From an uncultured virus (IMG/VR IMGVR_UViG_3300048127_000199) (lineage: Duplodnaviria > Heunggongvirae > Uroviricota > Caudoviricetes), in the IMG/VR virus record IMGVR_UViG_3300048127_000199: a stretch of DNA of 20,000 bases; one strand, written 5' to 3'. Below, one piece after another: positions 3,189 to 18,138 of this stretch; within the stretch, counting starts at the first letter, position 1, and every line of letters begins with the position of its first letter. The position numbers and the translations under genes were made by a program. The notes under the pieces were generated by a model. It worked only from the letters and a program-made list of their open reading frames with translations. It was not told the DNA's origin and searched no databases.

Positions 3189-3211
3189 TTGTGTTGATTT
3201 TTCTTTAAAAT

Positions 3212-3218
3212 GTGTAAT
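3212..3218 (+). promoter_or_regulatory. GTGTAAT motif, GTGTA 11 nt before ATG 3228
   Basis: GTGTAataataatattATG; a weaker TTGATT lies at 3194-3199. Confidence 0.55.
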
Positions 3219-3227
3219 AATAATATT

Positions 3228-4520
3228 ATGAACTTAAATACAATTGATGAATTAGGGAGAAGAGAATTTATAGCGCATGCCGCAAAAGCATGCTTCGGAG
3301 TAGGGCTTATGCCGATGGCAGGAGCTTATATTAACAATACAGTGAGCGCTCTTGAGCCTAGTACTAGAGTTCCGACAGCTAGGCATGTCATTTATTTAAA
3401 TATGTCAGGAGCGATGTCGCATCTTGACACATTTGCCCCAAAGCCTGACGCTCCTGATATTCAAGGGCCTACCAAATCAATTGCAACAAGCGCTGATGGA
3501 GTTATTTTATCCGAAAATCTACCAAAAACAGCGGAACTAATGCATCTTGGGTCAATTATCAAAACAATGAATACTAGTCAAGGAGCCCACATGCAAGCAA
3601 GTTATTTAATGCACACTAGTTATCTTAAGAGGGGCACAATTGTGCATCCTACATTCGGGAGTTGGGTGTCAAAACTTTCAGGTTCAATGAATAAAACAAT
3701 ACCTAGCAATGTTAAGATTGGAGGTGGAGGAGGCGGAGCTGGCTTTCTAGAGTCTAAATACGGCGCTCTTCCCATTAACAACCCTTCCTCAGGTCTAGCT
3801 AATAGTAAAATGGCTTCGTATTTAGATCATGAGCATTTTCAAAGCAGAATATCTATTGCCGAGCAATTGAATCAAAATTTTTCTACAGAATTTCCATTAA
3901 AACAAGTAAGAGCTTACAGTGACTTATATAAAGACGCAATAAAATTAATGAATAGTAATGATCTAAATGCTTTTGATATCACTAAAGAGCCAGCATCTGC
4001 AAGTGATCTTTATGGAAACACTAACTTCGGTAAAGGTTGCTTGTTAGCTAAAAGGCTAGTTGAGCATGGTGTTAGGTATGTAGAAGTTACGCGAGGAGGT
4101 TGGGATACTCATGATAATAACTTTGAAAGAGTTGCTGCAAATTGTGCTGATATCGATCAAGCTTTAAGCGGACTTCTTATTGATTTAGACAGAAGAGGGC
4201 TTTTATCAGAGACTTTGGTTGTATTAACCTCTGAATTTGGCAGAACGCCAAACATAAATGGAAGAGACGGGAGAGACCATTGGCCTTATTGCTTCACAGC
4301 TTTTCTCGCAGGAGGTGGAGTGAAAGGTGGATTTACTTATGGTGAGACAGACAAAACAGGCAGATCTCCTGTTGAAGGAAAACCTATCAAGCCAGAAGAT
4401 TTGAATGCTACTATAGCTCATACCCTTGGTTTATCTTTAAATAATTATCAATATTCCCCGTCAGGAAGACCTTTTACTATAGCCCATAAAGGCGAGCCTT
4501 TGTTTGATATTTTATCTTGA
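3228..4520 (+). CDS. DUF1501 family protein with twin-arginine (Tat) signal
   Basis: GRREFI Tat motif; VIYLNMSGAMSHLDTFAPKP, FGKGCLLAKRLVEHGVRYVEV, GGWDTH, SEFGRTP.IN...GRDHWP, LAGGGVKGG..YGETD. Start 3228 preferred over 3210. Confidence 0.93.
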   Translation: MNLNTIDELGRREFIAHAAKACFGVGLMPMAGAYINNTVSALEPSTRVPTARHVIYLNMSGAMSHLDTFAPKPDAPDIQGPTKSIATSADGVILSENLPKTAELMHLGSIIKTMNTSQGAHMQASYLMHTSYLKRGTIVHPTFGSWVSKLSGSMNKTIPSNVKIGGGGGGAGFLESKYGALPINNPSSGLANSKMASYLDHEHFQSRISIAEQLNQNFSTEFPLKQVRAYSDLYKDAIKLMNSNDLNAFDITKEPASASDLYGNTNFGKGCLLAKRLVEHGVRYVEVTRGGWDTHDNNFERVAANCADIDQALSGLLIDLDRRGLLSETLVVLTSEFGRTPNINGRDGRDHWPYCFTAFLAGGGVKGGFTYGETDKTGRSPVEGKPIKPEDLNATIAHTLGLSLNNYQYSPSGRPFTIAHKGEPLFDILS

Positions 4521-5772: not shown

Positions 5773-5801
5773 TTGACATTTCGCAAATAAACACTTATAA
5801 T
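5773..5801 (+). promoter_or_regulatory. sigma70-type promoter TTGACA-N17-TATAAT, ATG 7 nt after the -10
   Basis: Perfect consensus in intergenic DNA. Confidence 0.85.
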
Positions 5802-5808
5802 TTATAAC

Positions 5809-6030
5809 ATGAACAATAAATTCCTATCTATTCTTGAATATTCTTTAAATAAGTTTATGCCATATGTTTTAATTAGTTTTTTAGTATTTTTTGAATTTGG
5901 ATTTTATAAAGTTCAGCCATATATAATTATGGGGCTTTTGTGTTTTTTAGACAAACATTCTTTTAGAGTAGGTTATGCCGTAGCTCTTTGCGAAGAAAGG
6001 GGAGTTGATCTTGAGAAATGGGACAAATAA
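5809..6030 (+). CDS. small membrane protein
   Basis: 73 aa with hydrophobic segments, directly after a promoter. Confidence 0.7.
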   Translation: MNNKFLSILEYSLNKFMPYVLISFLVFFEFGFYKVQPYIIMGLLCFLDKHSFRVGYAVALCEERGVDLEKWDK

Positions 6031-6032
6031 AA

Positions 6033-6039
6033 GTGTAAT
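6033..6039 (+). promoter_or_regulatory. GTGTAAT motif, GTGTA 9 nt before in-frame GTG 6047
   Basis: aaGTGTAatattatttGTG immediately after the upstream stop. Confidence 0.6.
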
Positions 6040-6046
6040 ATTATTT

Positions 6047-6259
6047 GTGCAAGAGAGAATAATAAATTTGCTATTGACTATAATCGGGTGTTGTGTAGTT
6101 TTTTATATTTTTAAACAGAATCACGAAATAACATATTTAAAAGATACCATTAAAATACAGCATGAAGCGATAGAAAGACAAAATGTTTTAATTGATTTTC
6201 AAAAAAGAATCATGTATCCAAATAATCCGCAAAATGAATTTCAGCCAACTTATAAATAA
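6047..6259 (+). CDS. small protein, N-terminal TM helix plus coiled coil
   Basis: LLLTIIGCCVVFYIF followed by a heptad-like segment; GTG start inferred from motif spacing. Confidence 0.65.
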   Translation: MQERIINLLLTIIGCCVVFYIFKQNHEITYLKDTIKIQHEAIERQNVLIDFQKRIMYPNNPQNEFQPTYK

Positions 6260-6635
6260 GCAATCTTACAAAAAGATATTTAATAAACTATATTCCAGCC
6301 AACTTAAATACGAAGAACCTAAAAGTATTAGAGAAATCGATGTAGAAGCTAGAAGTGCATGGGATTTCTTATTACAAGCTCAACCCCAAAGATCAAAGCA
6401 CGAAATCCATGTTGGATTCTGTAAAGATTTCCAAAGCGAAGATTTTCCTTGTGCAGAGCTTCGTCATACCAAAAGCAAGCTTTTTCATAATTTCAATGAA
6501 GCTCCTTGGCAAGAAGTTTTGGGATCAAATATAGTAAATTCGTCAAGTTTGTCAGATGAAGAAGTTTGTGCTACAATTTTTTGGTTCTTGACTATGAACT
6601 CTTTTAAGCCAAATAAAGAACTTGATCATGCTTAG
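6234..6635 (+). CDS. hypothetical protein
   Basis: ORF track 6192..6635; first ATG at 6234. Confidence 0.65.
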   Translation: MNFSQLINKQSYKKIFNKLYSSQLKYEEPKSIREIDVEARSAWDFLLQAQPQRSKHEIHVGFCKDFQSEDFPCAELRHTKSKLFHNFNEAPWQEVLGSNIVNSSSLSDEEVCATIFWFLTMNSFKPNKELDHA

Positions 6636-6822
6636 AAAATTTTGGCTTATATGGGCTAGAACTCTCGATCATAGAGTGGGAAGAACAGATAATGATGAAC
6701 CTGATATACCTATATTATCATTAAGAGACGCTCAAATAAGTCTTTTATTAAGAAGTTTAATTGTAATAGTTAATTTAATAACTTGTTTTTTTATAGTCGC
6801 AAATATAATAAAAAATTGGTAA
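6628..6822 (+). CDS. small phage membrane protein (FW.IWA...IVN.ITC.FIVANIIKNW)
   Basis: Pattern resembles a small hypothetical family common in aquatic phages (from recall); C-terminal TM segment. Confidence 0.7.
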   Translation: MLRKFWLIWARTLDHRVGRTDNDEPDIPILSLRDAQISLLLRSLIVIVNLITCFFIVANIIKNW

Positions 6823-7275
6823 ATGAATAGTAGTGAAAAAAGGTTCTACGACATGTGTGTGTCCAGAAATTGGAGTGTCGAAAAAGCCTCAAAAAATCAG
6901 GACATGCACGAACATTGGGATTTTAAAGTTAGAGATTCTTTAATTGATGTAAAAGGATTCAAGAAAACCTCTAGGTCTGATGCCTTTTTTAATCACGATG
7001 AAATTTGGATAGAGTTGCAAAATGTGCGAGGCAATAAAGGTTGGTTGCGTGGAAAAGCTGATTACATAGCTTTTGAGCATTCAAAACATTTTTTGATAGT
7101 AAGTCGCCAAGATTTACTAGATTGGTGCAAATCTAAAATTACAAATCGATCTTTTGTTTCAAGCCCGAAAGAAGCTTTGTATAGACTTTATCAGCGTAAA
7201 AATAGAAAAGACATTATATCTATAATTAAAACAGAAGATTTTGTGAAGGATGTAAAAACTTGGGTTTTAAAATGA
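6823..7275 (+). CDS. putative PD-(D/E)XK-fold nuclease
   Basis: HWDF...IDVKG.KK (D...DxK core), IWIELQNVRG.KGWL.G.ADYIAFE. Confidence 0.6.
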   Translation: MNSSEKRFYDMCVSRNWSVEKASKNQDMHEHWDFKVRDSLIDVKGFKKTSRSDAFFNHDEIWIELQNVRGNKGWLRGKADYIAFEHSKHFLIVSRQDLLDWCKSKITNRSFVSSPKEALYRLYQRKNRKDIISIIKTEDFVKDVKTWVLK

Positions 7276-7278
7276 ATC

Positions 7279-7536
7279 ATGTATGACAGCGGCTTAAATA
7301 ATGAATTCGAAAAAGCTCATCAGAAAGGTTTGCATAGAGGATTTGATTTAGGCTGGTCATATAAAGGAAAGTTTGACAGGCAAATAATACAAGACAAAAT
7401 TATAGAGCTTGAAAAGAAATATGAAGCTAGAAAATCTAAAAAAACTTTGAATGAAATAAATATTCTACGAACTGTTTTAACGCAAATAAAAGACCATAAA
7501 TGTAACAGAGAAAACATCACTTTAAACTTTTGGTAA
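7279..7536 (+). CDS. hypothetical protein
   Basis: 85 aa ORF in the tandem gene array. Confidence 0.65.
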   Translation: MYDSGLNNEFEKAHQKGLHRGFDLGWSYKGKFDRQIIQDKIIELEKKYEARKSKKTLNEINILRTVLTQIKDHKCNRENITLNFW

Positions 7537-7543
7537 GTGTAAT
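7537..7543 (+). promoter_or_regulatory. GTGTAAT motif, GTGTA 9 nt before in-frame GTG 7551
   Basis: taaGTGTAatatattttGTG. Confidence 0.6.
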
Positions 7544-7550
7544 ATATTTT

Positions 7551-7940
7551 GTGGAACATAAACATCTTTTAGTTAATGCTACTTTCGAGCAGACCCCATT
7601 TACGAATACAGATTTCACAAATAAATGGCTTTTAAAAATTGTTAAATTAATTGACATGGAAGTTTTGCATGAACCTGTCTCGGTGAGATGTGATGAAAAA
7701 AATAACGAGGGCGTTAGCGGGTTCTGTTTAATAACAACGAGTCATTTATCTTTGCATTCTTGGGAGAAAAAAACTCCGAATTTATTACAACTTGATGTCT
7801 ATAGTTGTAAAGATTTTGACCCTCATTTAATTGAGTATGAAATTAAAAAATTTCATCCAATATCTCTTGGGTTAAAATTCCTAGATAGAAGAGTACGAAA
7901 TACTAAAGGATGGTCAATGTTTGATGAAAGCAAGGCATGA
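7551..7940 (+). CDS. speD: S-adenosylmethionine decarboxylase-fold pyruvoyl proenzyme, divergent (TTSH at the cleavage site)
   Basis: HKHLLVN, GVSGFCLITTSHLSLHSW, QLDVYSCKDFD; GTG start at 7551. Confidence 0.8.
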   Translation: MEHKHLLVNATFEQTPFTNTDFTNKWLLKIVKLIDMEVLHEPVSVRCDEKNNEGVSGFCLITTSHLSLHSWEKKTPNLLQLDVYSCKDFDPHLIEYEIKKFHPISLGLKFLDRRVRNTKGWSMFDESKA

Positions 7941-8701
7941 AAATATATTTTAGGCATTACTCAGGAGCAATCACTGAATACGATTATTTATTTTTTGATT
8001 GCATGGCAGAAGTTCCGTTAGACGAAGAAGAGCGAGCTTTGCAGGAAGGATGGTTACCTGATGACTATTTTGCTCCTAAAAATGCAGTAAAATCCCATTG
8101 GTATCAAGCTCGACAAACAAGAATTGATTTAAGCAAATTTATTGATACTCGCAGTAGTCGAAAGGCTAGAAAAAAATGCAAAGATATTGTGGTCAAATAT
8201 ACGAAAGCGAATAAAGCAAATATAGAAATTTTAAAAGATATATTTAATAAATATTTTGAATACAGAAACTTTAAGCCTTGGAAGCTAGAGCCTCTACTAA
8301 GTTTAGAGATTGAGAGAAAACATTTTTTAATTTATTATTTAAATGACGAACCTATTGCTTTTACATTTTTGAGAGATGTCGGAGAGAATAGTGTTTTCTC
8401 AACGCAGTTTGCGTGGAATTATGAAAATCCAAAATTATATTTAGGCAAATATGCAAACCTTGCAGAAATAGACTATTGTATTGCAAATAATAAAGACTAT
8501 ATGTATACAGGAGTAGGGTATGAAAAAGCTTGTATATATAAGTCTGACTACCAAGGGTTTCAATTTTGGAACGGAGAAGCGTGGTCGAATAACACAGAAG
8601 ATTATAAATGGTTATGCGAGAGAGATTCTAAAATTGAAAAAACAAAAGATTTAGATAAAATAAAAAGATACGATGATAAAAATTTTTTTATAAATGATTA
8701 A
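7937..8701 (+). CDS. Ate1/Bpt-like aminoacyl-tRNA-protein transferase (GNAT-type fold)
   Basis: ALQEGW, WYQARQTRIDLSKF, FAWNYENPKLYLGKYANLAEI, YMYTGVGY...CIYKSDYQGFQFW resemble the ATE C-terminal pattern (LG......EI...YLY.GY...M.YK..F). Confidence 0.65.
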   Translation: MKIYFRHYSGAITEYDYLFFDCMAEVPLDEEERALQEGWLPDDYFAPKNAVKSHWYQARQTRIDLSKFIDTRSSRKARKKCKDIVVKYTKANKANIEILKDIFNKYFEYRNFKPWKLEPLLSLEIERKHFLIYYLNDEPIAFTFLRDVGENSVFSTQFAWNYENPKLYLGKYANLAEIDYCIANNKDYMYTGVGYEKACIYKSDYQGFQFWNGEAWSNNTEDYKWLCERDSKIEKTKDLDKIKRYDDKNFFIND

Positions 8702-9146
8702 AGATTATATTGATTATATTTCCCTGCAAAGAAAAAAGATTGGCGGTCATGCGATATGCCCTTTTGCTAAAGCTTTTTTGGATAAAGTGCAAATAATAGA
8801 GTCTACAAACTTTTGGATTGACGCTACAGAATGTATGGAAAATGAAGAGCATCCAATGCTTTACCTTGTATATGGAGACAAGGATAAATATAGCACAGAA
8901 TGGCTTGAAAAATTTTGTCAAATAAATAAAAAGTATTCACGCAGTAAAGATCTTTGGTTAATATGGGATCATCCTGATCAAATAAATAAAATAAATGGAA
9001 TTGAGACAAATAATAAAGAATATGCTATTCTGTTAATACAAAAATTATCTGAATTAAATAAATATTCTGAAAAATTACATAAAACAAATTATTATGAATT
9101 TTGGGATAAGGAATATTATAATAAAATAGTAAAAAGTCGATTATGA
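8694..9146 (+). CDS. DUF1415-like protein (ICPFAK ... DHP motifs)
   Basis: N-terminal ICPFAK, central WDHP, LLIQKLSEL, YYEFW. Confidence 0.5.
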   Translation: MIKDYIDYISLQRKKIGGHAICPFAKAFLDKVQIIESTNFWIDATECMENEEHPMLYLVYGDKDKYSTEWLEKFCQINKKYSRSKDLWLIWDHPDQINKINGIETNNKEYAILLIQKLSELNKYSEKLHKTNYYEFWDKEYYNKIVKSRL

Positions 9147-9176
9147 GTAAAATAGGTGGGATGAAGTAATTTTTTC

Positions 9177-9205
9177 TTGACTTTTCTCAAATAATATGAT
9201 ATATT
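9177..9205 (+). promoter_or_regulatory. sigma70-type promoter TTGACT-N17-TATATT, ATG 7 nt after the -10
   Basis: Intergenic, same geometry as the other promoters. Confidence 0.75.
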
Positions 9206-9212
9206 TATACCT

Positions 9213-9617
9213 ATGTACTTAGGTAGTCAAGAATTAGTTGAATTTTATAATTGCGATGAAGATATTTTAAAAGATTCTGATTTAATAAAAAAAATATTTA
9301 TCGAATCTGCTAAACTAGGTAACGCAAATATAGTTAATAGTCTATTTCATTCTTTCAGTCCTTATGGGGTCACAGGAGTCTTAGTGATTGCAGAAAGTCA
9401 TATGAGTATTCATACATGGCATGAGTTTAATTATTGTGCAGTTGATATATTTTCTTGTTGCGATAAATTAAATAATAAAATTGTTTTAGAAGACTTAAAA
9501 GACAAACTATTCAGTAGTAGATATGAATCAACACTAGTTAATAGGGGGAATAAATATATTATCGAACAAAGTGCAAATAAAAAGTTGACAAATAAGCAAA
9601 AATCTGTCAGAATATAA
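9213..9617 (+). CDS. speD: S-adenosylmethionine decarboxylase proenzyme (canonical ESH)
   Basis: FHSFSPYGVTGVLVIAESHMSIHTWHEFNYCAVDIFSC and C-terminal RG, typical of the short SpeD/SpeH class. Confidence 0.92.
   Translation: MYLGSQELVEFYNCDEDILKDSDLIKKIFIESAKLGNANIVNSLFHSFSPYGVTGVLVIAESHMSIHTWHEFNYCAVDIFSCCDKLNNKIVLEDLKDKLFSSRYESTLVNRGNKYIIEQSANKKLTNKQKSVRI
9585..9613 (+). promoter_or_regulatory. sigma70-type promoter TTGACA-N17-CAGAAT, ATG 6 nt after the -10
   Basis: Embedded in the speD 3' end; fixed spacing to ATG 9620. Confidence 0.7.
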
Positions 9618-9619
9618 GT

Positions 9620-9880
9620 ATGGAGATTAAAAAAGAATTAAAAAACGCAACTTTTATATATGATGACGAGAAAAAAGTATTCACCATTATGGAAGCTGAT
9701 GGCTTTAATGGTTATATTGAATTAAATAAAATTTATGCTTTTTCTTTTATGCGTTTTGTGATTAGAATGGCTCAAAGAAATTGGCTAAAAAGTGCAGATT
9801 CTTTTAATAAAACTGAAGAACTTTTAGGCTCTATTGAAGAGGAAGAAGATGATCCAAATCAACTAGAGCTTTTTAATTAA
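9620..9880 (+). CDS. hypothetical protein
   Basis: 86 aa with acidic tail ending DPNQLELFN. Confidence 0.7.
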   Translation: MEIKKELKNATFIYDDEKKVFTIMEADGFNGYIELNKIYAFSFMRFVIRMAQRNWLKSADSFNKTEELLGSIEEEEDDPNQLELFN

Positions 9881-9899
9881 TAAATAAATAATAAATAAT

Positions 9900-10082
9900 A
9901 TGAATAATCAATCATTCGATATAGTTTGTGCGTCTGAAGTAGAAGAATTTTTCTATGAAGACTCTAATATGCCCGTACCCGAAGGCGAGCCTGTTGGTGT
10001 AGAATTCCATTCTCCAACCAATTCAAACCTAGTTTTATCTAAAGGAGTTTATTTTTCTCACGAAAATCTATTCTTAGATTAA
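9900..10082 (+). CDS. hypothetical acidic protein
   Basis: 60 aa ORF in the tandem gene array. Confidence 0.6.
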   Translation: MNNQSFDIVCASEVEEFFYEDSNMPVPEGEPVGVEFHSPTNSNLVLSKGVYFSHENLFLD

Positions 10083-10934: not shown

Positions 10935-11867
10935 ATGGACAACAATTATTTCGATGGCTTGATCGGGCAAGAGTGCGTTAAGAAGAAACTATCTTTTTAT
11001 TTAGATGCGTTTCACAAAACAAGCGTTTGCCCATTTCTTAATCTAGTTGGTGCAAAAGGTTTAGGTAAGACTGAATTTGCTAAAGCATTCGCCAAGAATC
11101 TGTATAATAGAAACGGAGGCAAGCGTTCGTTCTTAGAATTGAATTGCTCTACAATTAAAAACAATGAGCAATTTTTTGAGCAAATTTTTCTGCCTTTAGT
11201 AGCGGATAATGAGATCACAATTCTTTTTGACGAATGCCATGCTTTGCCGAAAGATTTAACAATGGCATTTTTAACTATTTTCAATACTGAAACAAATACA
11301 AGAAAGCGTTTTGAGTGGAATGAAATGACATTTGAGTTTGACTTCAGAAAGCAAACCTTTATTTTCGCAACAACAGAGAGTGACAAAATATTTCCGCCAC
11401 TTAAAGATAGATTAACAACAATAGATTTCGATCCGTACTCCCAAGAGGAGATTGGCGAAATTATTAAAATTTGTTGCGGTAATATTTCTTTCTCTGATGA
11501 ATGTATAAATGAAGTAGCCTCGACAATTAGAAGTAATGCTAGGAGTGCTGTAATGCGTTCAAGAGAAATCATGTTATATTGCGAATCTAAAGAGATCGAA
11601 AGATTTGAGTCTCATCACTTTAAAGACTTGCGTGACGCTATCGGTATTTTACCTCTAGGTATTTCTCGGACAGAGAAACAAATTTTGCAAATATTAAAAG
11701 AGTGCGGATCAATTAGCCTCACAGGTCTTTCTGCTAAGTTAGGGCTGAGCAAAACATCTCTGCAAAGAGATCACGAACTTTATTTGCTAGGTAAAAATCT
11801 AATTGAAATTGATGGTAAGCGTAGAATCACTTCAAATGGAATCAAACTTTGTGAGGATTTAGTATGA
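10935..11867 (+). CDS. ruvB: RuvB-like Holliday junction branch migration AAA+ ATPase
   Basis: FDGLIGQE.VK..L, Walker A GAKGLGKT, Walker B LFDECH, FATT, PLKDR arginine finger, C-terminal winged helix (LGI...E..IL...E.YLL...LI....R..T..G). Confidence 0.85.
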   Translation: MDNNYFDGLIGQECVKKKLSFYLDAFHKTSVCPFLNLVGAKGLGKTEFAKAFAKNLYNRNGGKRSFLELNCSTIKNNEQFFEQIFLPLVADNEITILFDECHALPKDLTMAFLTIFNTETNTRKRFEWNEMTFEFDFRKQTFIFATTESDKIFPPLKDRLTTIDFDPYSQEEIGEIIKICCGNISFSDECINEVASTIRSNARSAVMRSREIMLYCESKEIERFESHHFKDLRDAIGILPLGISRTEKQILQILKECGSISLTGLSAKLGLSKTSLQRDHELYLLGKNLIEIDGKRRITSNGIKLCEDLV

Positions 11868-17847: not shown

Positions 17848-18138
17848 ATGACAGAATACGAGATAGAATTAAAAGAAACTCCCGAAGGTGAATTATTTTT
17901 TCGTATACCCGATGATGCTCTTGGTCGATTAGGTTGGGAAGAAGGTGATGAGTTAAAGTTTGAAGAAAGGGATGGTGCAGTTCTGATTCGCAAAATTAAA
18001 TACGAAAGCGTTGAGCTAGAATTTGACGATGAAGAACTTCTTAAATATATGAAGTTTGCACATGAATCGGGAATTACATTTAATCAACTTTGCGAAGACG
18101 CAATTAGATCAAAATTAGATGAAATTAATTCTGAGTAA
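17848..18138 (+). CDS. AbrB/MazE/SpoVT-like DNA-binding protein with possible C-terminal ribbon-helix-helix
   Basis: FFRIPDDALGRLGWEEGDELKF...VLIRK; C-terminal AHESGITFNQLCEDAIR. Confidence 0.7.
   Translation: MTEYEIELKETPEGELFFRIPDDALGRLGWEEGDELKFEERDGAVLIRKIKYESVELEFDDEELLKYMKFAHESGITFNQLCEDAIRSKLDEINSE

Follow-up and report, generated by a model that had tools for sequence, protein, structure and literature searches.

Why would a virus set a gene for a predicted aminoacyl-tRNA-dependent transferase between a decarboxylase gene and a gene for a small protein with an invariant Cys-Pro, and do these genes act together? The question is raised by positions 7537 to 9617 of a 20,000-nucleotide stretch of DNA, here called the window, from an uncultured member of the Caudoviricetes (IMG/VR record IMGVR_UViG_3300048127_000199). 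An earlier note, made from the sequence alone, had read four genes of this region as one cluster, including two S-adenosylmethionine (SAM) decarboxylases (SpeD), and had suggested a pathway that couples amine or polyamine production to tRNA-dependent aminoacylation. Our best reading divides the region into two modules: module 1 (7551 to 9146) comprises SpeD1, an ATE-like transferase and the small protein CPFA, and module 2 (9213 to 9617) consists of SpeD2. We regard it as close to an even bet, if slightly short of one, that module 1 is a translationally coupled three-enzyme unit that draws on tRNA during infection to make a small, modified molecule resembling arginine or a polyamine, with module 2 as an independent SpeD.

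The window is part of a virus record of 64 kb with an estimated completeness of 44%. All four open reading frames (ORFs) lie on its plus strand: SpeD1 at 7551 to 7940, the ATE-like gene at 7937 to 8701, CPFA at 8694 to 9146, and SpeD2 at 9213 to 9617. The stop codon of SpeD1 and the start of the ATE-like gene overlap by 4 nt (ATGA, 7937 to 7940), the next junction overlaps by 8 nt (8694 to 8701), and a gap of 66 nt separates CPFA from SpeD2. The ORF list thus bears out the earlier coordinates and overlaps of the first three genes. The family assignments hold as well: Pfam matches AdoMet_dc (PF02675) to the first gene (E 1.4e-12, 48.3 bits) and the fourth (E 2.2e-33, 115.3 bits), and ATE_C (PF04377) to the second (E 1e-6, 29.8 bits), each above a cut-off of 25. 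The two SpeD copies share 19% identity, in agreement with the description of the second as sequence-distinct.

Whether the genes belong together was assessed from two sets of loci. The first comprises 30 viral loci collected with the window's ATE-like protein; the second, independently seeded with a CPFA alignment, comprises the best 80 of 448 confirmed CPFA relatives among 600 pattern matches. Not all loci are independent, since several are near-identical and two (L008 and L035) are one contig. The genes for SpeD1, ATE and CPFA lie side by side in each of the 12 close loci, between differing flanks, and likewise in three of three further loci, one of them on the contig of an earlier locus; SpeD1 lies directly 5' of ATE in all 15. 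Co-occurrence in other phages, which the earlier note had proposed as a check, is therefore found in every close locus.

Beyond this clade, CPFA adjoins ATE in 24 of the 30 ATE-seeded loci, as detected with profile hidden Markov models, and an ATE-like gene adjoins CPFA in 59 of the 80 CPFA-seeded loci. Across the 83 loci that carry both, five arrangements occur: CPFA followed by a short ATE form (50 loci), a long ATE form followed by CPFA (15), convergent genes with a long (11) or a short (6) ATE form, and a short ATE form followed by CPFA (1). The median gap between the two genes is -3 nt, and their adjacency persists at 25 to 30% identity. An adjacency that holds through inversion, changes of gene order and divergence to as little as 25% identity argues that ATE and CPFA are a functional pair. 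A SpeD gene is adjacent only in the window's clade (the 15 loci) and in one other locus (L026). The conserved core is the pair of ATE and CPFA, and the decarboxylase is a clade-specific addition.

Further genes are found within some of these loci. Two relatives from the window's clade carry extra genes between ATE and CPFA (L034:4176-4610 and L033:4122-4991), one of which is QueF-like (E 1.3e-18). Proteins of about 375 amino acids are encoded between ATE and a DUF6614 gene, described below, at L067:3122-4240 and L077:5890-7032. These two loci also account for the sub-threshold matches to the arginine deiminase/amidinotransferase family, seen in two of 27 neighbour proteins (E 0.048 and 0.013); similar-sized downstream genes in other loci have no Pfam match.

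What would the added decarboxylase contribute? SpeD1 (plus strand) is a divergent class-1b pyruvoyl decarboxylase of the type found in pelagiphage HTVC201P. Translation from the GTG at 7551 agrees with how homologues begin (MEHKH), and the alternative TTG start farther 5', at 7530, is less probable. Its relatives among cultured-phage records come from 11 pelagiphages, one uncultured phage and one cyanophage, with 34 to 35% identity to the HTVC201P SpeD homologue (E 3e-19). S64, H69 and C86 are invariant in a nine-sequence alignment and represent the processing serine, the histidine and the cysteine; in the class 1b SAM decarboxylase (AdoMetDC) of T. maritima, the accessible text of PMC10407285 gives S63 as the self-processing serine and H68 and C83 as catalytic. 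In the HTVC201P enzyme, as in SpeD1, the cleavage site is T-S-H, the motif QLDVY(S/T)C occurs, and the sequence carries the same two insertions. The gene contexts differ, as the HTVC201P gene is flanked by genes for an exonuclease and a ribonucleotide reductase and has neither ATE nor CPFA in its vicinity.

These likenesses bear on the substrate. According to the part of PMC9992855 available to us, the HTVC201P enzyme decarboxylates arginine and not ornithine, lysine or AdoMet, and it did not complement a speD deletion. PMC10407285, again as far as its text was accessible, describes a conserved proline that separates bona fide AdoMetDCs from arginine decarboxylase (ADC) forms, and four diagnostic residues of ornithine decarboxylases (ODCs): Gln, Thr, Phe and Tyr. 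At the site that we take to correspond to this proline, SpeD1 reads HSWE, SpeD2 reads HTWHE, and the SpeD proteins of cyanophage S-PM2 and of L026 read HTWPE. SpeD1 has residues of the ODC type in the Thr preceding the processing Ser and in the Gln and Tyr of QLDVY, with Leu where HTVC201P has Phe, a comparison made at motif level rather than residue by residue with the published positions. By sequence, SpeD1 groups with the pyruvoyl arginine/ornithine decarboxylases (SpeDA/SpeDC) and not with proven SAM decarboxylases, and the SAM decarboxylase function previously ascribed to it is replaced by that of an HTVC201P-type enzyme probably acting on arginine or ornithine.

The middle gene (plus strand) encodes a 254-residue protein with the predicted fold of the ATE1/Bpt aminoacyl-tRNA-dependent transferases. 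Its AlphaFold model, derived from 27 sequences, has a mean predicted local distance difference test (pLDDT) score of 80, with residues 1 to 21 unreliable. A Foldseek search of the Protein Data Bank (PDB) with this model returned human ATE1 as the top match (8tzv, E 1.5e-8); the other top matches were K. lactis and yeast Ate1, A-PGS/MprF, LFTR, FemX and Sba18, all of them aminoacyl-tRNA-dependent transferases. VIA alignment likewise placed human ATE1 first (Z 16.7, root-mean-square deviation (rmsd) 3.4 over 225 aligned residues), about two units above MprF and KlAte1 and further above Sba18 (Z 11.0), which describes a bilobed, GNAT-like ATE1 fold. The aminoacyl-tRNA transferase fold that the earlier note had expected of this gene is thus found by structure prediction and by both comparisons.

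The catalytic residues can be followed into this family. A profile of the ATE-like family aligns weakly with residues 234 to 307 of yeast Ate1 (E 0.14), pairing S155 with S255, W160 with W260, A173 with S273, E177 with residue 277 (E/D277), M189 with Y289, and Y201-K202 with Y303-K304. E177, Y201 and K202 are invariant among the 27 aligned family members. In the accessible text of PMC9351520, E277 of klAte1 is needed to bind the arginine moiety of Arg-tRNA, K304 is needed for transfer and is the counterpart of the intermediate-stabilising lysine of FemX, and the leucine-transferring Bpt has Gln at the E277 position. The retention of an acidic residue at E177 therefore suggests a basic donor, and the amino acid transferred is probably basic, for example arginine.

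The nearness to ATE1 also raises an alternative that we judge improbable, namely that the enzyme adds an amino acid to the N-termini of host or phage proteins and so hijacks the Bpt/ClpS N-degron route, with CPFA preparing or altering the substrate end, for example by oxidation. In eukaryotes, cysteine oxidation precedes arginylation. Protein tagging of this kind would suit a protein whose closest fold is ATE1, two Z units above the lipid and peptidoglycan transferases, which matches ATE_C above the Pfam cut-off and keeps the catalytic Tyr-Lys; Bpt, moreover, is a bacterial relative in the Leu/N-degron pathway, as stated in the portion of PMC9351520 that we could consult. The features that would recognize a protein acceptor are less in evidence. 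No match to ATE_N (PF04376) was obtained for the ATE-like protein in Pfam at E up to 1, and no four-cysteine zinc site is conserved in the 27 family sequences. The basic pocket by which Ate1 and Bpt receive acidic N-termini, with its essential Arg80 (PMC9351520, accessible part), appears to be replaced in the family by G-W-L-P-D-D, a correspondence drawn by eye and not by an alignment program. The relatives are mostly half-size forms with a single lobe, about 145 amino acids long, and cover only residues 96 to 210 of the window's protein; its gene is accompanied by genes for a decarboxylase and a haem-like enzyme, and not by one for a protease adaptor. The phage protein shares with ATE1/Bpt the fold, the ATE_C domain, the Tyr-Lys and the acidic residue, and differs from them in having no ATE_N match and no zinc-finger cysteines, in its apparent loss of the basic acceptor pocket and in its size.

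CPFA (plus strand), for which the earlier note offered no explanation, is the second member of the conserved pair. It is assigned to phrog_10325, a family of unknown function (PHROGs, E 8.5e-24), and its structural model is confident (pLDDT 92.5): four strands flanked by helices, with Cys22 in an N-terminal loop. Apart from the start methionine, C22, P23, A25 and Y134 are the only invariant positions across 29 diverse relatives. The family comprises 1,260 clusters at 50% identity (E up to 0.001; 723 at E up to 1e-10), nearly all of them viral, and only three CPFA-like loci were found in genome contigs, all in metagenome-assembled genomes.

Several lines of comparison lead from CPFA to haem enzymes with a cysteine ligand. 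An exhaustive VIA search of 48,161 chains ranked apo-AglA (9ub3) first, with Z 7.0 and an rmsd of 3.5 over 138 of 150 residues and the runner-up at Z 4.5, although VIA itself warns that models lacking a true match usually reach Z 7 to 8 at best. AglA, as described in the accessible text of PMC12866846, is an enzyme of the YqcI/YcgG family with a four-stranded "sandwich" fold and a haem ligated by Cys44, which N-hydroxylates the guanidine of AMPn-Arg. A second family, DUF6875 (PF21780), is matched by 14 of the 29 CPFA relatives when E values up to 1 are admitted (best 9.2e-5), and every match falls within roughly the first 60 residues; two of the 29 match DUF1415. DUF6875 has been renamed cytochrome P422, a family of thiolate-haem hydroxylases with the haem cysteine in an RxGxVCP motif, in the part of a preprint accessible to us (10.64898/2025.12.11.692455). 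None of 20 CPFA family members matches YqcI/YcgG (PF08892) at E up to 10, and no YqcI/YcgG protein was found in the window's record. For a profile comparison, an alignment of YqcI/YcgG was built from 11 genomic sequences. Comparison with hhalign gave a single alignment of 74 columns (probability 3.1%, P 0.014), which pairs C22 and A25 of CPFA with the Cys and the Ala that are invariant in the YqcI/YcgG motif P-C-x-x-A. Because these individually weak lines agree, we lean, somewhat beyond an even chance, toward CPFA being a Cys-ligated haem protein. Its sequence and model make it a probable small oxygenase of the thiolate-haem kind, with a distant likeness to DUF6875/P422 and YqcI/YcgG (AglA).

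The statistical weakness of every haem sign would also fit a non-enzymatic CPFA that acts as a structural or regulatory subunit of the transferase, for example by substituting for the second lobe that the half-size forms lack. The stop-start overlap seen in most loci agrees with such a role, as do the short ATE forms without the N-terminal part. The window's full-length ATE keeps CPFA too, however, and CPFA stands alone in 21 of 80 loci and also occurs fused to a radical-SAM enzyme; in addition, a single invariant Cys-Pro in a family of this size points to a ligand or catalytic residue. We therefore hold a purely subunit role to be decidedly unlikely. The fusion just mentioned is P0281, a 572-residue radical-SAM/SPASM protein with a C-terminal CPFA domain. 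At L042:2413-7899, CPFA lies among three radical-SAM/SPASM genes, with a matching layout of gene sizes in L050. No longer fused forms of CPFA (at least 348 amino acids) were found, which is weak evidence because an ATE fusion of about 310 amino acids would escape this limit.

CPFA is also present in cultured T4-like cyanophages, where the homologue (T4-like gene cluster 824) lies just 5' of the baseplate genes gp25 and gp6, at 26205 to 26669 in S-PM2 (L031) and as Syn1_090 in Syn1 (L032). No ATE-like gene is present within 4 kb of either homologue. The pair of ATE and CPFA has a third frequent partner, a DUF6614 protein of about 110 amino acids that adjoins ATE (median distance 4 nt) in 53 of the 83 loci that carry the pair, compared with none of 25 CPFA-only loci. 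It is spread over L019 to L112 (for example L052:5891-6226), belongs to a family that is purely viral in Atlas, and shows no likeness to SpeD (best E 0.35). In one group of loci (L019 to L023, at 5799 to 6584), a Mom-family DNA-modification protein (PF25680, E 1.2e-52) abuts CPFA, with a peptide deformylase and an SMC-like ATPase nearby.

Such neighbours could alternatively mean that the system modifies DNA, the virion or another macromolecule, or serves in counter-defence, instead of producing a free metabolite. The Mom-family gene, the position of CPFA immediately 5' of gp25 and gp6 in S-PM2, Syn1 and many contigs, and the T4-baseplate-like gene neighbours in 47 loci would all be compatible with this, and an anti-Druantia type I gene is predicted to belong to DUF6614 (preprint 10.1101/2024.04.14.589459, in the portion accessible to us). 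Yet the Mom neighbour is limited to one lineage of five near-identical loci, the baseplate synteny may merely mirror a genome order shared among T4-like phages, and the anti-Druantia family call is itself a prediction. Neither DUF6614 nor Mom is present in the window. We consider a target of this kind unlikely.

The fourth gene stands apart from the other three. SpeD2 (plus strand) is a canonical-type class-1b SpeD with canonical spacing of the processing Ser, the His and the Cys. Its relatives occur in 139 records, mostly of cyanophages, and the SpeD of S-PM2, a proven AdoMetDC according to the available text of PMC9992855, is 39% identical. SpeD2 follows the triad in just four of the 12 close loci (L001 to L004). 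The earlier note had found no spermidine synthase in the window, and none is encoded in the 64-kb, 44%-complete record either; a complete, near-identical relative of 194 kb (G604) carries SpeD2 beside the triad and speE about 110 kb away. Among eight related phage records, a second, high-scoring SpeD is found in four of four with SpeE and in none of the four without it, whereas the low-scoring SpeD1 type is present in all eight, and in two of the records (G608 and G609) the high-scoring SpeD directly precedes speE. Because the second SpeD tracks SpeE in this way, SpeD2 is most likely an independent SpeD whose product feeds a spermidine synthase that the phage encodes at another place in its genome. 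It thus resembles the known phage SpeD/SpeE modules in identity and co-occurrence, and departs from them at one motif, having HTWHE in place of the HTWPE found in S-PM2 SpeD and in the SpeD copies next to speE in G608 and G609, a caveat on its role as an AdoMetDC.

With this, the four genes no longer form a single unit, and the possibility that they are independent auxiliary genes lying side by side by chance can be weighed gene by gene. SpeD2 fits that description: besides its presence in a minority of the close loci, it is only 84% identical in L001 to L003, where the flanking genes are 98 to 100% identical, and 96% identical in L004, where the genes of the triad are 72 to 77% identical. Because its identity runs counter to that of its flanks, an exchange of SpeD2 between lineages is suggested. 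For SpeD1, ATE and CPFA, simple co-location is contradicted by an adjacency that outlasts rearrangement, inversion and divergence, and as an account of these three genes we give chance very little credence.

How might the three remaining genes work together? In the pathway that we propose, SpeD1 would process itself to a pyruvoyl enzyme and, by its kinship with the HTVC201P enzyme, convert arginine or ornithine to agmatine or putrescine. The ATE-like enzyme would move an amino acid, probably basic and possibly arginine, from charged tRNA onto an amine, and CPFA, as a small Cys-ligated haem protein, would hydroxylate the substrate or the product with the help of host electron donors. We leave the order of these steps unspecified. 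An amine pathway is favoured because the added partner would make a guanidino-amine or diamine, the transferase suits a basic amino acid, and the enzymes closest to CPFA act as hydroxylases of guanidines or indoles. For genes 1 to 3, the earlier suggestion of amine production joined to tRNA-dependent aminoacylation accordingly remains the best reading, and SpeD2 falls outside the conserved unit. In a narrower version, about which we are considerably more doubtful, the phage kit would divert charged tRNA to an N-hydroxylated aminoacyl-amine of hydroxyguanidine or hydroxamate type, such as hydroxylated arginyl-agmatine, fed in this clade by its own pyruvoyl decarboxylase.

A number of observations weigh against this pathway. 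The case for a haem enzyme is weak at every step, from the VIA score to the hhalign probability, and the window's CPFA itself matches no Pfam family; a Foldseek search of the PDB with its model returned nothing within a limit of E 0.001, and only noise came from comparing CPFA profiles with PDB sequences. The closest fold of the ATE-like protein belongs to a protein-modifying enzyme and not to a small-molecule ligase. CPFA is absent beside ATE in one lineage, which accounts for the other six of the 30 ATE-seeded loci (L013 to L018), and the CPFA-seeded loci without an adjacent ATE gene include the sites 5' of cyanophage baseplate genes and the radical-SAM context; because CPFA also occurs without ATE, its role need not depend on ATE. 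Most pairs of ATE and CPFA are without a decarboxylase, so that in these phages the amine would come from the host. Finally, no ferredoxin is encoded in three complete relatives or in the window's record, and the same holds for agmatinase.

The sequences upstream of the two modules offer little further guidance. A GTGTAAT motif (7537 to 7543, plus strand) lies 5' of SpeD1, as the earlier note had observed; its role is unassigned, and its five copies in the window, compared with 2.1 expected, do not exceed chance (at least five in 13 of 200 shuffles), with four of the five on the plus strand close to gene starts. Similarly, the sigma-70-like site proposed as SpeD2's own promoter (TTGACT-17-TATATT with TG, 9177 to 9205, plus strand) is present in the 66-nt gap, in a region (6800 to 10000) that holds 16 promoter-like sites, compared with 17.6 in shuffled sequence. 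Contigs of 151 nt from RNA libraries (runs X3 and X6, shares 0.06 to 0.08), identical to the window, map to SpeD1 and CPFA, a signal that could stem from DNA carry-over and is thus no proof of transcription.

The surrounding genes, which include a dNMP kinase, a clamp loader, UvdE, an HNH endonuclease and ThyX, are those of a large AT-rich phage. No tRNA gene was found in the window. Searches of 50,697 cultured-phage records gave no match to the ATE-like protein or to 2.4 kb of DNA, and no tblastn match at E up to 1e-10 to a clamp-loader/RuvB-like AAA+ protein (10935 to 11867); because the latter is unmatched, we place the lineage far from any isolate. At the edge of the phage gene block lie a 759-residue protein with PSCyt2, PSD1 and DUF4214 domains (533 to 2812) and a 436-residue DUF1501 protein (3210 to 4520, E 4.5e-108), neither matched by any PHROG. 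The DUF1501 protein is 99.8% conserved in two relatives (L001 and L003), and the two make an unusual auxiliary pair for a phage; PSCyt2/PSD1 and DUF1501 together are typical of planctomycete-like bacteria. Amid small genes of unassigned function, a MazE/AbrB-like protein with an antitoxin fold is encoded at 17848 to 18138 (PF04014 at its cut-off; phrog_661, E 1e-10).

Outside the ribosome, aminoacyl-tRNA is used in building cell walls, modifying lipids and protein ends, and making a few antibiotics. We found no publication that describes a phage ATE-like gene, this cassette, or non-ribosomal use of aminoacyl-tRNA by a phage, and the word "phage" does not occur in the accessible portion of the cytochrome P422 preprint (10.64898/2025.12.11.692455). 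The cassette presents a concrete three-protein system testable in E. coli, and setting it apart from SpeD/SpeE amends the annotation that both "SAM decarboxylase" genes would probably receive. What this particular DNA adds is a clean division between SpeD2/SpeE and the cassette, together with a residue-level case for a basic aminoacyl donor. If CPFA does bind haem, it would represent a widespread and almost wholly viral phage oxygenase family. If the proposed hydroxylated aminoacyl-amine is indeed made, the kit would parallel the first steps of hydroxamate siderophore synthesis (decarboxylase, N-hydroxylase and acyltransferase) with unrelated enzymes, would be carried by many ocean and freshwater phages, and its product could serve infection through, for example, iron handling, counter-defence or control of host translation.

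Among known protein families, CPFA appears to resemble P422 and YqcI/YcgG in combining an N-terminal Cys-Pro or Pro-Cys..Ala motif, in CPFA a putative haem ligand, with a four-stranded sheet flanked by helices. It differs from them in that its matches lie below threshold, in its shorter length, in its almost wholly viral distribution, and in being without the listed substrate-binding motifs of P422. DUF6875 itself was not found in 401 genomes of one phylum.

The closest parallel to the proposed pathway as a whole is the biosynthesis of argolaphos in Streptomyces monomycini. There, according to the accessible text of PMC12866846, AglC together with arginyl-tRNA synthetase (ArgRS) and tRNA makes AMPn-Arg, which AglA with ferredoxin then hydroxylates; Table 1 of PMC8976061, in the part available, lists a YqcI/YcgG protein and two GNATs in the gene cluster. 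The phage proteins are not simple equivalents of these enzymes. At about 150 amino acids, CPFA is well short of the 243-residue AglA chain, and the Pfam model for YqcI/YcgG does not recognize it; in structure, the phage transferase stands closer to ATE1 than to ligases of small molecules, Sba18 among them; and the genes come from a phage, not an actinomycete, with no phosphonate genes. The likeness lies in the pairing of activities: AglC is a tRNA-dependent GNAT-type ligase that places arginine on an amine, and AglA is a small thiolate-haem guanidine hydroxylase and the best structural match of CPFA. The argolaphos steps are the sole worked precedent that we found for tRNA-dependent ligation followed by haem hydroxylation.

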